From: a virus
Length of the DNA: 64,000 nt
Virus genome (UHGV): UHGV-1366603
Strand: one strand, 5' to 3'
Position numbers: made by a program. How positions within the stretch are numbered: the stretch's first letter is position 1; every line of letters starts with the position of its first letter. Shown here one piece after another: positions 51,001 through 57,000 of this stretch.

Positions 51001-54000
51001 TACGTTCGTAACAATATTCGCAGTCCAGGTTACACGAAAGATTCGTTACAATCTGATACGTTAGCTGCTTAGGGAATTCATTTACTTGACTCATTTGCCG
51101 CCCCTCTATTACGCCCTGCCATCACTACGCGACGAATATATTCGTAAGCCTCTACACCGATAGAGAAGGCCAGTTGGTTACACCCGGATTCCAGTACGTT
51201 AGGTGCATTCTGGAGCTGGTGCTCACCACCGTCTGCATTAATCCAGAGACTTTCGCTGCAAACGTTACAGCCTTCTTCAAACACTTTACTTACCGTAAAA
51301 CCACATTCACGTCTGTTTACTACATTCAGTCGTTCAATGTTGTCCTGAACCTGATAGTAGCCGTAAATAAAGTTCATGACGTGGTCAGGTGATAACGGTT
51401 TTGGCATTTTCGCATCTAAGAGTAACGTCATTGCTCGGAAACCGTAATGGTAAATCGCGCTATGCAGCTGAATAATATCTTCATGCCAACGTTTATCCCC
51501 CAAACGGTCCCGTGTCAAGACACCCCAAGTCTGGACATTATCCAGCTCGTAGATCGTTTCCAGTGCTTCGTAACAGCCTTCGTCAATAAAGCGCATAAAT
51601 GGACGCTCAGACGACTTAAACCCATCGATGCTAACGTAGACATTGTCAAACTGTTTTAGCAACGGGAGATGCGATTTACGCATCTTTAAGCCATTGGTAT
51701 ACAACTGGTGTTTGAGTTCTGGACGAATCACTTTTAATTCGTCAACAAACGCCTCAATTTTACGGGTTGCCAGTAATGGCTCACCACCCGTCCACTGAAT
51801 TTCGGTAATGGTTGGATTAGCTTCCAACGCTTCCAAAATTCGCTCACGTTGAAACTCTCGCGGAGAATCTTCACGATTCATGTAATAGGCTCCACCGCAG
51901 AAGCTACAATCCAGGTTACACTTGGACGTAGCGACTACGGACAATACGGTGGGTTTATCGTATAAACGATTCGATAACCTTGGTTCTGCATTGGTTGTCA
52001 TTGCAGGTGACTCCGGTCGTTTTTAAATATAATCAATGGCGAACAAAGGATCGTCGTCTACGTTAGCACCAGGGGTTAACAAGAATGGAGAGTTATACGC
52101 TTCCAAAATACGGTTAAGGTCTTTATAACGGACATTTAAACGTTCTAAATCCGCTAACGTTACGTTACGGTCCAACACCGCCGACACTGCTGCTTTCTCT
52201 TCGTCAGTTAACGTGACTTTCGTCATTAAGAAACTAACGAGTTTTGCCAGATCCGCTTCTGTTGACGGATGCTCGCCAATACGTGTTTGAATCAAATGCT
52301 GCATCCAAGGCTTACGGATGCGTTTTGTGATTTCGTGCTCATCCGTCAGGGCAACCCACACAGAACGTTCACGATCCCACACGAACTTATAGCTATACGC
52401 CATTAAATCCGCTAAGCAATTAATCCCTAACGCTTCGTACCCTTCAATTTCGATATACGATTCCGTATCGAAATAGTTCTTCGTTTCTGGTGTTACCAGG
52501 GTAAAGAAATACGGGAACGAGCCTAAGTAATCCGGCGACCACCAACGACGGGCAACCGGTTTTGCACCCATTTCTTCAAACGGGGTAAAGAACAATTCCA
52601 TATCTACGGAGTTATTCAAAATCCCGTCACTAAAGAAATATTTACCTGCAACCAATTTACCACGCAACTCGGAGTCACCGGTAAAGACCACTACACTTTC
52701 TGCCGCCAGATCACGAATCTTAAACGTATTTTCTACACGATAGTTTTTACGATCGGTAAAGAAACGTCCGCGCACTTTAGGCCATTCGCCTGGCAATTGC
52801 GTCAGCAGACGAACTTCATCTGCTAAGTGTGCACGTACGGAATCAGGGGAAGAAATGTGAAGTGGATGATTGAAAATCGTTTTGTACGCTAAATGTAAAT
52901 CATTCTTCATTGATTGCTCCAACTATTTTACGGTCAAACGGACGTTCAGGGTATAGAACCCACCCCGCCATTGTCTGCCGGTAACTTGAAACTCAGCAGT
53001 AAACCCATTCGATTTACTCGGTTGCTGGTTAATCGCCATACTACCGCCGGAATTACTTAAAACCTCTAAAGAGATAGAAGCAGAAGTCGCATTACCGATT
53101 GAGTCTATCTTAAAACTAGCCGCATCTGTAAAATTGACAGTAATACCATCACCCATCGCAACTTGGGGAAAGGCTTACTTACCGCCCCCCTGCTCCCTTA
53201 CTACAGCTACCGCTGCACGACCAGCTACATCCACCGTTACAGTTGTAGTGGCTTAAAGGTAAACCGGCAAGGTTATTGGTTGAAGACACGGTACCCTGGT
53301 TTGCAATATAGTTGTTTGCGTTAGCGGTCGTAATATACCCTTCCGCTGTTACTAAACGATCACGAAGGTTCTTAAGGCTAATCACAATTACCTCCCAGAA
53401 CACCCACCGGAACAAGAACCTGAACAGCCTGAAGAACAGTTCCCTGTACACGCGTTAGAACAGCTCCCCGTGCAACTTCCTGAACACCCACCGGAGCAGG
53501 TATTCGAACATCCGCTACAGCCCGCGCTACAACCTGATACGCAGTTTGCAGAACACGAGGAACCACAACCACCGGATGCGTTTCCTGTGCAGCCACCAGA
53601 ACAACTCGAACACGTCCAGCTACAACTACCTCCGCAGTCGTAGTGATTGCGGGCCTGTCCTCCGAATAAGTCTGCGTTGTTTGTCGCTTTCCCGCGAATA
53701 TAGTTTTGTACTGCACCCGTATTCTTCAATGCAGTGCTGTCAATGTTATTTAACCGCGCTTGTAGCGCAGGTAATCCAATTGCCATTTTTCACCTCTTAG
53801 GTTGGACCAGAACAGCCGCCAGAGCAGGCACCAGAACAACCCGTAGAACAACGGCCTGAGCAAGCACCCCCACAAGTTCCGCTACAACCTGAACACCCAC
53901 CTGAACACGTTGAGCTACATCCAGTACATTGGTTACCGCACGCAGAGGAGCAGCTGCCTACACACACAGACGTACAAGTACCCGAACAGCTCGTACAACC

Positions 54001-57000
54001 ATGCGTACAGCCGTTTGAGCACGTCCAGCTACAACTACCTCCGCAGTCTAACCGGTTTGGCGTCCAACCCGAAAATGTATCGGCTGCATTATGTGCTTTC
54101 GACGCAACTTGCGGATCAACACGTGGGCCAGTTGCCATTTGGTTCTCTACGTTGGTGATTCGGTCACGTACGTTTTTAACACTGATCGCCATCACGTATC
54201 CTTAAAATAAAAAAGAATGGAGGACTACGTCCATAAACATAGTTCCTCCTGTAATTAAATTATTTTGTACCCGCTTCCGCCTGTACGTCATCACGAGACG
54301 TCAGGTTAGCGTTAACGTGTACTGGGGCCTGAACCACACCACCGTATCTCTTGTGGAGATAACCGCTGTGCGGGTTATCTGCCGCGATGTGGTTTTGTAG
54401 GTTCTGGTTCGCTTGACTGATTGCGTTCGTGTTATTGTTAACTTGCTGTTTAAGCGCATCCAGGTTCTGTTGTACCTGATCGATTTTCTGATCGGTTTCT
54501 TGACCCTGTTGCTCTAACGCGGCAACACGCTGAATAACCTGATTCAGTTTTGTGTTTAAATCGTTGATGCTCTTTTGCAGTTGTAACACTAACGAGTTCA
54601 GGTTCGCTAACGCTAATGCCATTTTCTGGTAGTTTTGAGCAACCACGTTAAGTTGGTCGTTCCACGCTTCCAGAGAGTTGACAACAGCGTCAATACGCTT
54701 ACCTAAAGCTTCGTCCGCTTTCTTCAGTGCATTGATTTCCGTAATCGTTGCGTCGATAGCAGACTGGACGTCACGGATAAGCGCACGGATTTCAGTTTCC
54801 GTTAACCCGTTAACCTGATGGATATCAAGATGGTGAACGTTACCGGTTGAGTTAATGTGTGCATTTAAAGCGTCTAAGAAGTCATTTTTCAGGCTTTCTA
54901 AAATCGCTTTAATGTTCTCTAACTGTACTGCGTCACCAGAACTAATAGCATCTTTAATACCCGCCAATACGGTAATGATATATTCAAAACCGTAGATGTC
55001 ACCCACGTCTTTATACGTCGGTGCAGACGGGAATGTATCCGGTACGTTACGCAAGTCTTTAAACGCAATCGTACGGTTATCGAGGTTTAATTCAGCAATC
55101 GCCTGTTCGATAGCCACGATGTTCGCAGACTGTGGGCCACCAACGACCTGCGCAGATACTGTAATATCTGTTGGAATCGCTGTGTTAGTGACCACCACCG
55201 CCATAACAATCTCGCGGTTTTTAGTCAGCTTTTCATAAGTCGGGTGTGCAAAAATCAACTCATAATCGGTACCACGTTCGTAGGTTGCATCCGGTCGGTT
55301 AGCAACGCGTAAACGGAACGTGTCCGCAAAGAACGGGCCGTCAGGAAAAGCAAAAGCACGGTTTACTTTACCTGTACCTAACGTAATCTGACGCTCCACA
55401 GCGTTAGACGTTAGCGAGCCCGTTAAATCTAAAGGATATTGATAAACAATGGAGGCCATGGCCACTCTCCTTTATTCGAGACGTCCTTGTCCCGAGTCAT
55501 TAAGATGTAAACATAAGATTGAACTGGAGTTTGTCGATATCGCGAGTTTCTGCCGGATTCACGGCATCGTACGCGGTCGCTACGTAAACGGTTAGCGTGC
55601 CGTTAGCGTAAGACGATTTCACCGGTGGGTTAGTTCCGGTCTGACCATCTCGCACAATGAGTGTAGGTTCACTTGGGAGATTATCAAACTGACCCTTGAC
55701 CGCTTTATACACCAAACCAGATTGCGCAGACAGTTCACTGTCCGTAAAGACAAAGAACGGTGTGTCGATATCTGCCTGTTTAATCGTGGTACCGGTCTCG
55801 ACGTCAATCAACTGTACCGCCCCAAACTTCGTACGATAACTTTCATACTCGTTCTTCGGAATAACGAACGTGACGTGAACGCGAACCTCCTCGGCAGGTT
55901 TAAACCCAGCGTGCTCTTTTTCCAGGTACTGGTTGGCGGTTAACGTTACCGTTTGTTCAGTCATCGTACCACCGGCCTGGTTTATTGCATACCGAGCTTC
56001 AACAATACCGGTTGGTGCAGCAAGTCGCAGTTTCAAAGCACGATTCGCCGTTCCTGGATTACCTGGCACCTGAACGCGCAAACTCAATGCTAGGTAAGCA
56101 TACGTTCCGGTAGTCGGTTTCGTATACGCACCAATCCATTTCATGTTCGCAGACGCTGCCTGCGTGTTTTCAGAAGCAGTGGCTGTCGCAATGTTGGCGG
56201 CTACCGCTTTCTGCCAGAATTGGTCAGCGCAGTTCTCATACGCTACCCTGGCCACGCTCTTATAACCCGAGTAAGTTTCCTGAATTGGTAACTTAGGACG
56301 CGTCGTAATACCAGACAGTGAACCCCATTTTTGACCGTCAACATACCCTTCACCTTTCGTCGCAGACGCCGTAGGTGCTTTAACGGGTTTGTTAACCAGC
56401 GTTAATAGAGGACCGGTCTTTCTGTCAAACGCTGCTGCTACATCGTGTTGGTCGATAATTGCCGCGTGGTCTTCCAGCTCTTTCACACGACCCAAACGTT
56501 TTACTTTGTCGATACTGATATCGGTAATACGGCTGGAATCGGTGGTTACCGTCCCGACGAACAGTCTTGTTGAAGTATCAGCTAACTGCTCCAAACCGAT
56601 ACGGTATTGCGCAGTAGAACCTGACACCTCAGCGTGCACGTAGAACGTTTGGTTAGCGTGATTGGACGGGAACTCGCTGCTTAAATCCACAGACCACGTT
56701 GGAAGTGTGTAACTGCTGCTACCGAAGTCTAACTTGACTTCTTCTGTCAAATACAGAATCCAGCCTTCTGCTGTCTCCACACCGGCAATAATAACAGCCT
56801 GACCTCCGGTTGAGAACGTCGTGTCGTTAACGAACTCTGCGGCTGTATACGCGTTACCTGAACAGAAAACACGGTCAGCTTTAGAGTAAATCAACGCCAT
56901 CTTGTCCCAATTACCGGCACCCATATAGCACCCAGATTCTGGGTTATGTGCAGGGGCCATCTGTCGTAACTGTGACTTACCAGGAACGCGAGACCAACCT

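Follow-up and report, generated by a model that had tools for sequence, protein, structure and literature searches.

The 64,000 nucleotides of the virus genome UHGV-1366603 analysed here (the window) come from a relative, about 72% identical, of the Salmonella jumbo phage SPN3US. At 53179-54192, on the minus strand, they hold three tandem paralogous genes for proteins rich in cysteine, glycine and serine, which we call pepA (53797-54192, 131 aa, 21 Cys), pepB (53388-53786, 132 aa, 20 Cys) and pepC (53179-53385, 68 aa, 4 Cys). An earlier note, made from the sequence of the window alone, had placed the three genes at exactly these coordinates, with no strand given, and had credited peptides A and B with roughly 24-26 Cys each, more than are actually present. 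It had taken the proteins for leader-core precursors of ribosomally synthesized and post-translationally modified peptides (RiPPs), with neighbouring radical S-adenosyl methionine (SAM) enzymes as their modifiers. We describe these genes, their relatives and the genes that accompany them.

Three cysteine-rich genes and their products

The genes are as tightly spaced as the note had remarked. A 10-nt gap, holding the ribosome-binding site (RBS) GAGGTG, separates pepA from pepB, and a 2-nt gap separates pepB from pepC, whose RBS GGGAGG lies inside the final codons of pepB (GGG AGG TAA); this spacing supports a predicted translational coupling of pepA, pepB and pepC. The ATG of pepA at 54192, which is preceded by a GTG codon, is the start common to its orthologs. 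The GTG start proposed for pepC is corroborated by SPN3US and STsAS, which likewise read GTG-ATT-AGC, and by phage Huxley, which has an ATG at the equivalent site.

The trio was found by tblastn in 60 phage records. The same three ORFs occur in the same order in SPN3US, SPLA1a, STsAS, CR5 and Erwinia phages of four genera, and all 15 of the 15 jumbo-phage loci retrieved from IMG/VR carry A, B and C together with genes, described below, for a helper protein, two radical SAM enzymes (rSAM2 and rSAM1) and a 190-aa protein. One IMG/VR contig (L022) is 97% identical to the window across pepB. In codon-aligned comparisons, differences at third codon positions are two to three times those at positions 1 and 2, and the Cys-rich part shows a proportion of synonymous differences (pS) of about 0.7-0.9, against about 0.2 for nonsynonymous differences (pN). 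With frames that stay open and in synteny across 60 records, this codon-position bias and a pN far below pS, pepA, pepB and pepC are real genes under purifying selection, far beyond chance. All three match phrog_6085, a phage protein family annotated as of unknown function, with E-values of 1.7e-40 (pepA), 1.6e-39 (pepB) and, over the first half of the profile, 2.3e-24 (pepC).

Existing annotations treat the genes unevenly. In SPN3US (L001, 11417-12446), where pepA, pepB and pepC occupy 12054-12446, 11639-12043 and 11417-11623 of the minus strand, gp166 (RefSeq gp100) runs off-frame across pepB and the other two genes have no annotation; in Huxley (L004, 8099-8836), pepA and pepB are overlain by gp176 and gp177, which are called on the opposite strand; EarlPhillipIV gp161 (L005, 8550-8822) and Wellington gp183 (L006, 7700-8029) look like wrong-frame calls. 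The record of phage SPFM14 (L020, LR535912.1, 7475-8479) contains the peptide genes with 20-codon segments in reversed order, its neighbouring fibre genes are fragmented and its description reads 'XXX', and several SPFM records gave only 42-59-bp megablast matches. This block-scrambling is probably a deposition or assembly artefact common to several SPFM records. The idea that some SPFM phages are natural knock-outs devoid of the gene cassette was rejected, since SPFM14 holds the genes in block-scrambled sequence.

Each of the three proteins consists of an N-terminal segment and an NAxxLxG-like stretch, followed by a junction C-x-G-x-C-S-W. In pepA, the N-terminal helix segment is MAISVKNVRDRITNVEN, and a tail fibre-type motif, NAADTFSGWTPNRLD, is present. 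The leader motif KN(V/L)RDR that the note had described occurs in pepA and pepC; in pepB it is degenerate (PALQARL). The junction is, as the note had it, close to invariant (RLDCGGSCSWTCS in pepA, HYDCGGSCSWTCS in pepB, HYNCNGGCSWSCS in pepC) and lies, on the minus strand throughout, at 54025-54045 in pepA (CGGSCSW), 53616-53636 in pepB and 53221-53241 in pepC (CNGGCSW). Across 18 orthologs and paralogs, C-x-G-x-C-S is invariant and the W nearly so. The Cys array of pepA (53812-54045, minus strand) has 82 residues and 21 Cys, and that of pepB (53400-53636, minus strand) has the same architecture and 20 Cys. pepC is indeed a short version, made of the N-terminal segment, the junction and two more Cys, and its orthologs in Derbicus-type phages, Wellington-type phages and the viral contig L010 retain just the two junction Cys.

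The array has a four-residue repeat with one Cys per unit, C-[S/T]-G-[G/S/T]. Both of the spacings reported in the note, CxxxC and CxxC, are present, in very unequal shares: 86% of the gaps between Cys are CX3C and 13% are CX2C. Every Cys column of the array is invariant in the alignment, and the positions between these columns are variously S, T, G, A or N; overall, this part of the protein is composed of 25% Cys, 24% Gly, 23% Ser, 11% Thr and about 1% Asp plus Glu. The N-termini read MAIS... or MAIG... and contain no twin-arginine motif. An AlphaFold2 (AF2) model of pepB, built from a 20-sequence alignment, has helices at residues 5-32 and a pLDDT below 50 in the array. No relative of known structure emerged when the PDB was searched by sequence with the family profile.

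Radical SAM enzymes that accompany the arrays

Downstream of the trio, with short gaps or overlaps and on the same minus strand, follow genes for the 295-aa helper (52023-52910, phrog_8030), for rSAM2, a small radical SAM enzyme of 307 aa with a few C-terminal Cys (51078-52001), for rSAM1, a 440-aa radical SAM/SPASM enzyme without an N-terminal extension of the size of a RiPP recognition element (RRE; 49772-51094), for a 190-aa protein that is a conserved cassette member (49237-49809, phrog_7988; 26% identical to L010_172) and for a 223-aa protein (48590-49261, phrog_8169), the final gene of the co-directional block. The SPN3US gene syntenic with the last is annotated DUF4376, and the 223-aa protein has weak C-terminal matches to tail and tail-fibre PHROGs. 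A confident structure model was obtained for the helper, in which no known fold was recognised.

The enzymes carry the motifs CNLDCSFC and GGEPL (rSAM2, which matches PF04055 at 53 bits) and CNLDCEYC and GGEPF (rSAM1), and both match phrog_1802, a radical SAM family; by cluster motif, GGE motif and family match, both are assigned to the radical SAM superfamily. The seven-Cys motif of SPASM domains is present in rSAM1 as C-x17-(FG)C ... CLGCPMKHACGSC ... RRQCGW, and its alignment to SPASM families extends to the end of their profiles. Its top family is TIGR04115 (116.9 bits, profile positions 3-345 of 359; cut-off 350), the maturase of the CXXX-repeat system, which also comprises the TIGR04114 (= Pfam PF27846) targets and the TIGR04119 partner and is bioinformatically defined; second comes PapB (NF047865, 115.9 bits; cut-off 340). 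To a bona fide bacterial TIGR04115 protein (locus L012), rSAM1 is 24-26% identical over its full length, and TIGR04115 scores form a continuum from 625 bits in bacteria through 431, 386, 303 and 290 in gut phages to 198, 178, 157 and finally 117 in the window. The nearest solved relatives are CteB (5WGG, E 1.3e-13) for rSAM1 and SkfB (6EFN, E 3e-6) for rSAM2, whose scores with HxsC, PapB and similar families are weak. CteB and SkfB both form Cys thioethers on ribosomal peptides. In T7-like phages (L007), the two radical SAM enzymes are fused into one 668-aa protein, whose best family is PapB at 205 bits. Two IMG/VR jumbo-phage contigs (L025, 9016-9936; L026, 9015-9935) have an extra rSAM2-like paralog between pepA and pepB, besides the normal rSAM2.

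The note had observed that no YcaO-like gene is evident, and none was found among the ten genes at 48590-55465 in Pfam, NCBIfam and PHROGs scans. The TOMM/heterocycloanthracin or microcin B17-like core that it had nonetheless suggested did not hold up: the pep proteins match none of those precursor families, and the likeness is one of Cys/Gly/Ser-rich composition only. TOMM, microcin B17 and heterocycloanthracin systems were rejected as models on the grounds that genes for a YcaO protein, a cyclodehydratase and a dehydrogenase are all missing from the cassette.

Phage records with an rSAM1 relative nearly coincide with those that hold peptide genes. We surveyed this co-occurrence in 102 sequences (101 fetched loci and the window), of which 36 have arrays with the junction and 66 have arrays devoid of it. 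Every one of the 36 junction-type loci carries parts of the cassette: rSAM1, rSAM2 and the helper are separate genes in 29, fused radical SAM enzymes plus helper occur in 3 more, and of the remaining 4, three are cut by contig ends and one (L047) has both radical SAM enzymes and no helper match. Among the 66 junction-less loci, an rSAM2-like gene was seen once and the helper never; the helper thus accompanies junction-type arrays and was seen beside no junction-less one. The view that the neighbouring radical SAM enzymes are the likeliest modifiers is reinforced by their co-occurrence with the arrays in every examined locus, by their fusion in one lineage and by the rank of a CXXX-repeat maturase and of PapB as the best families of rSAM1. 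The link between the pep genes and the radical SAM enzymes is strongly supported. Since the junction is the sole element that pepC orthologs retain and the sole element that co-varies with rSAM2 and the helper, these two would act on it or recognise it, which suggests a division of labour in which rSAM1 works on the array.

Junction-less arrays form a set of their own. About 50 further viral contigs, mostly of 30-60 kb, encode CXXX arrays without a CSW junction, in proteins of 117-370 aa with up to 63 Cys, one of them fused to an SGNH-type hydrolase. These arrays adjoin tail-fibre genes and a single radical SAM gene whose product is a TIGR04115 member proper or nearly so (290-431 bits). Locus L039 (9233-10486) encodes a 416-aa protein with an SGNH/GDSL-type hydrolase N-domain, a call based on GDSL and GGINDL motifs read by eye, and a 31-Cys CXXX array, next to a radical SAM enzyme near the TIGR04115 cut-off; it resembles a tail-spike enzyme that ends in a Cys array. 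At the other extreme of size, P0081, P0083, P0090 and similar proteins of 1600-1800 aa end in CX3C arrays of about 500 residues with up to 168 Cys, and lack the CSW junction.

Arrays and junctions in tail fibres

An exhaustive profile search for the array family returned 709 clusters (at 50% identity) with E <= 1e-3, and at least 175 IMG/VR loci were confirmed. Among the top 150 clusters, 38 carry the junction, in proteins of 90-934 aa, and the array is C-terminal in 34 of these 38. The consensus of the junction in fibres is NAxxLxGxxxxxYYxC-x-G-x-CSWTC, followed by a CX3C array. Many pepB relatives of about 200 aa display a tail-fibre N-domain, a coiled coil, the stretch '...ADTLDGQHGSYYRCxxGCSWTCS' and the array; their N-domains match the tail-fibre family phrog_5073, as do neighbouring collagen-like fibre paralogs. 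Junction and array also terminate fibres of 370-560 aa (the collagen-like P0099, the T7-type P0102, and the myovirus fibres P0103 and P0131) and a 568-aa myovirus fibre in L047; in P0105, the array is internal rather than C-terminal. The trio of the window shares with these fibres only the coiled-coil/NAxxLxG segment and the junction.

Gene order points the same way. In podoviruses (L007, L015, L016), the cassette comes after the tube, nozzle and T7 fibre-adaptor genes, and in a lambda-like siphovirus (L018) after gpM, gpL, gpK, gpI and gpJ, with radical SAM genes next door in each of these contexts. In the window, homologs of SPN3US gp167-170 immediately precede the pep genes; this tail-fibre module includes, on the minus strand, a 401-aa fibre gene (54260-55465, gp167 homolog) and a 1727-aa fibre gene (55500-60683, gp168 homolog); the SPN3US proteins gp167-170 were detected in the virion and called baseplate or tail-fibre candidates (PMC5694885, PMC5105663). 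Cassettes are thus found at tail-fibre positions in myo-, podo- and siphoviruses.

These homologies bear on the leader-core reading of the earlier note, taken here in the form of a classical RiPP: a leader of about 50 residues would be recognised by the helper and the radical SAM enzymes, and the modified core would be cleaved off and set free when the cell lyses, with an antimicrobial, signalling or anti-defence role. Small tandem precursors of 68-132 aa beside two radical SAM maturases and an accessory protein are what a classical RiPP locus would offer; the core is disordered in the AF2 model, the proteins resemble the bioinformatically defined CXXX-repeat targets, with a borderline TIGR04114 match for pepB, and one cassette, on L010/L011, lies near an Acb2/Tad1-like anti-defence gene rather than near tail genes. 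The supposed leader, however, aligns through phrog_6085 and the family alignment to a coiled coil inside fibres of 200-560 aa that bear the same C-terminal junction and array, and in tail fibres of 200-930 aa junction and array are a C-terminal, or in P0105 an internal, part of the polypeptide. Moreover, the cassette occupies tail-fibre slots of unrelated phage types, across three morphotypes, pepC is essentially core-less and in one phage bears a folded C-terminal domain instead, and Pfam, NCBIfam and PHROG scans of the cassette found no leader peptidase or other protease, no exporter and no immunity gene. We therefore do not retain the leader-core claim, and consider a classical RiPP unlikely here. 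The note had itself named structural Cys-rich homologs free of radical SAM neighbours as evidence that would speak against it; structural fibre homologs were found, but with radical SAM genes beside them.

The L010/L011 cassette is a second copy that is not embedded in tail genes, and the gene just upstream of it encodes an Acb2/Tad1-hairpin protein of the anti-CBASS/Thoeris type. The same contig also has genes for a GroEL-like chaperonin and for a 394-aa protein that scores weakly as radical SAM and is unrelated to the two cassette enzymes; the stretches noted on it are 4651-5835 and 9600-9821.

Because the same junction and array end ordinary long fibres, we read pepA, pepB and pepC as small fibrils or tips associated with the tail fibres or the baseplate. 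At a probability that we would put at about 60%, they are minimal tail fibre-associated proteins whose Cys arrays are cross-linked by the phage radical SAM enzymes. Several observations weigh against this proposal. Firstly, pepA, pepB and pepC have no recognisable tail-fibre N-domain, and their structural assignment rests on homologs and context; the L010/L011 cassette is not visibly within a tail module; and AF2 assigns the array of pepB no confident structure. Secondly, rSAM1 falls well short of the curated cut-offs of all named families (117 bits where 350 are required), the helper has no recognisable fold and, with about 1% Asp/Glu in the array, the one chemistry known for PapB, the closest characterised enzyme, which joins Cys to Asp/Glu, cannot apply. 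Finally, the co-occurrence counts include related loci and sequences that were used to build the hidden Markov models (HMMs), and represent some five independent lineages. Both the modification of the peptides and their presence in the virion are predictions.

Virion proteomics of SPN3US can be read in two ways. The radical SAM enzymes and the helper are absent from the virion proteome and the flanking fibre proteins are present (PMC5694885), as expected if the former are maturases. No cassette protein is in that proteome, and this could also fit transient scaffolds or chaperones that serve the assembly of the large fibres (the gp167-170 homologs) and are then discarded. Small assembly chaperones are common in phage fibre modules, the last gene of the block encodes a DUF4376-type protein, and SPN3US has a gene for a tail assembly chaperone nearby. 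The mass spectrometry (MS) search, however, relied on an annotation that lacks the pep genes or calls them off-frame, and trypsin would find hardly any cleavage sites in the arrays; the absence of the pep proteins is uninformative because they were not in the search database. In many phages, besides, fibre and array form a single polypeptide chain, and dedicated radical enzymology is hard to rationalise for a disposable chaperone. We regard a non-virion assembly factor as very unlikely, more so than a RiPP.

Other features of the locus complete this picture. Between pepC and the helper, a 77-aa ORF (52923-53156, minus strand) without an obvious RBS is absent from SPN3US and has no family match in Pfam, NCBIfam or PHROGs. 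It matches the distal part (BLASTP E 3e-6) of the 150-aa C-terminal domain of P0029, a pepC homolog on another phage contig (L019) that is fused to this domain, and may be a remnant or split copy of the distal P0029 fibre-tip domain. A terminator-like hairpin (54219-54249, minus strand; centroid -14.6 kcal/mol, z -2.4) with a U-run (54203-54218) lies between the 401-aa fibre gene and pepA, and a bidirectional terminator-like hairpin with a perfect 11-bp stem (48548-48574) closes the block after the 223-aa gene. A simple scan for sigma-70 promoters and terminators contributed little otherwise; SPN3US-type phages use their own RNA polymerases. On the plus strand, at 47337-48510 and 43345-44704, the window also encodes several small paralogous proteins that, by eye, have features such as the N-terminal pattern '...KNPE...LT.EDV.FG.P...' and a C-terminal 'GELDGFTA' in common and resemble SPN3US virion paralog families.

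Candidate chemistry and known systems

Under the reading that we favour, pepA, pepB and pepC would belong to a widespread phage module composed of a coiled coil, the NAxxLxG stretch and the junction, plus, in A and B, the 82-residue array. The Cys-rich part would be the substrate of a co-inherited downstream maturation set, namely the helper, rSAM2, rSAM1 and the 190-aa protein. By means of SAM-derived radicals, rSAM1, as a member of the TIGR04115/PapB/CteB clade, would install many intra- or inter-chain cross-links, probably of thioether type by analogy, along the CX3C array, and rSAM2 and the helper would attend to the junction. The product would be a rod or knob whose covalent staples do not depend on disulfides and could form in the reducing cytoplasm, and the enzymes would remain outside the virion. 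Given the proximity to PapB, CteB and SkfB, we infer a thioether-stapled rod or knob as the most economical reading; the acceptor residues could be Ser, Thr, Gly, Asn or neighbouring Cys.

The phage system resembles the CXXX-repeat radical SAM system and is distantly related to it. Arrays with a Cys in every fourth place and otherwise rich in Gly, Ser and Thr occur in both (82 residues hold 21 Cys in pepA and 20 in pepB), TIGR04115 is the top-scoring family of rSAM1, and gut-phage relatives use bona fide TIGR04115 enzymes. Against the TIGR04114 cut-off of 20 bits, pepB scores 20.7, pepA 14.4 and pepC 12.8, and homologs carry precomputed weak or faint PF27846 matches. In contrast to that system, the phage cassette combines a sub-threshold rSAM1 (117 against 350 bits) with a second radical SAM enzyme, a novel-fold helper and a C-x-G-x-C-S-W junction; the TIGR04119 partner was not found, and the helper, the 190-aa protein and the 223-aa protein have no NCBIfam match. 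The phage substrates are tail-fibre modules and not exported small peptides. No experimental paper on the CXXX-repeat system was found in the open-access literature.

Bacterial CXXX members that we retrieved have a leader for twin-arginine translocation (Tat), which is not a curated criterion of the family, whereas pepA, pepB and pepC have none. The bacterial locus L012 encodes Tat-leader peptides, a TIGR04115 enzyme (625 bits), a TIGR04119 protein (223 bits), TatA and TatC. There (12782-13784), the peptides, with the leader motif RREFFK, adjoin their own tatA and tatC, an arrangement that suggests dedicated Tat export of modified peptides.

Tat leaders and nearby tatA and tatC genes also enter into a different account of the arrays, in which CX3C repeats would bind metal as thiolates or Fe-S clusters, as in metallothionein or metal-stabilised fibre shafts, and the radical SAM enzymes would have another role or load clusters. 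Tat typically exports cofactor-loaded or folded proteins, but export by this route is equally expected of heavily cross-linked peptides. Composition (25% Cys with Gly, Ser and Thr, and no obvious thioether acceptor in the form of Asp or Glu) and the absence of a predicted autonomous fold in AF2 are both compatible with metal binding. The constant co-inheritance of a PapB/TIGR04115/CteB-like maturase and its fusion to the second radical SAM enzyme are instead the signature of a substrate-enzyme pair, and no metallochaperone was found in the cassette. A metal-binding fibre domain seems to us improbable, to about the same degree as a RiPP; like the RiPP and assembly-factor readings, it is weaker than that of cross-linked fibre proteins.

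Other radical SAM systems supply partial precedents for cross-linked fibre proteins. PapB, a SPASM enzyme which, like rSAM1, has no N-terminal RRE-sized extension, makes in-line repeats of small Cys-anchored rings. In PapA, the precursor of the ranthipeptide freyrasin, PapB joins Cys to Asp/Glu within CX3D motifs, unlike anything possible in the phage arrays, and Cys-Asp chemistry of this type was rejected on array composition. The SCIFF-like precursor suggested by the note likewise finds no support. No SCIFF or Skf precursor family in NCBIfam matches the pep proteins, and rSAM1 scores 58 bits against the SCIFF maturase TIGR03974 (cut-off 425). Similarity to CteB (SCIFF) and SkfB (SkfA) is limited to the radical SAM core, and their substrates differ in size and motif.

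The His-Xaa-Ser system (HxsA, HxsB, HxsC, HxsD) also pairs a repeat target with two radical SAM enzymes and an accessory protein. Its repeat is different, its scores (76 bits for rSAM1 against HxsB, about 39 bits for rSAM2 against HxsC) are far under the cut-offs, and its chemistry is uncharacterised too. The closest conceptual precedent is the pair QhpC/QhpD, whose maturase family TIGR03906 matches rSAM1 at 61 bits. QhpD, a SPASM radical SAM enzyme, installs Cys thioethers in QhpC, a subunit of quinohemoprotein amine dehydrogenase that stays in the assembly. It differs from the phage case in making three Cys-Asp/Glu links in an enzyme subunit, with no repeats and no phage or fibre context.

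On the side of fibre architecture, collagen-like GXY fibres and the polyglycine-II tip of T-even gp38 similarly place a short-period, Gly-rich repeat in the distal part of the fibre, and in L007 a paralog with the same N-domain has a collagen repeat where P0019 has a Cys array. Unlike these, the phage arrays have a period of four, invariant Cys and dedicated radical enzymes. It is possible, though we rate this at a little under even odds, that there is an undescribed large class of fibre modules in which arrays of 20 to more than 160 Cys are made by radical SAM/SPASM enzymes into polycyclic stapled rods or tips, with the junction as a second site for the extra radical SAM enzyme and the novel-fold helper. 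Our search of the open-access literature found no paper that links radical SAM/SPASM enzymes to tail fibres or describes these genes.

There is a substantial chance that the system is something categorically new, namely radical SAM maturation of virion structural proteins. Our proposal accounts for genes that were missed or mis-called in dozens of jumbo-phage genomes and are absent from virion proteomes, and it can be tested directly in SPN3US, a genetically tractable phage with a collection of amber mutants. If it is true, radical SAM peptide chemistry would extend from secreted natural products and the few enzyme cofactors to which it has been tied so far to the building of virus particles, and radical maturation of the RiPP type would be known for the first time from a virion structural protein. 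Phages would possess a new structural post-translational modification, one that may help to determine host range and how robust the particle is, and a disulfide-independent route to ultra-stable receptor-binding appendages assembled in the cytoplasm. The arrays might serve as enzymatically stapled scaffolds for engineering and, in the RiPP field, the orphan CXXX-repeat family would gain a biological role.

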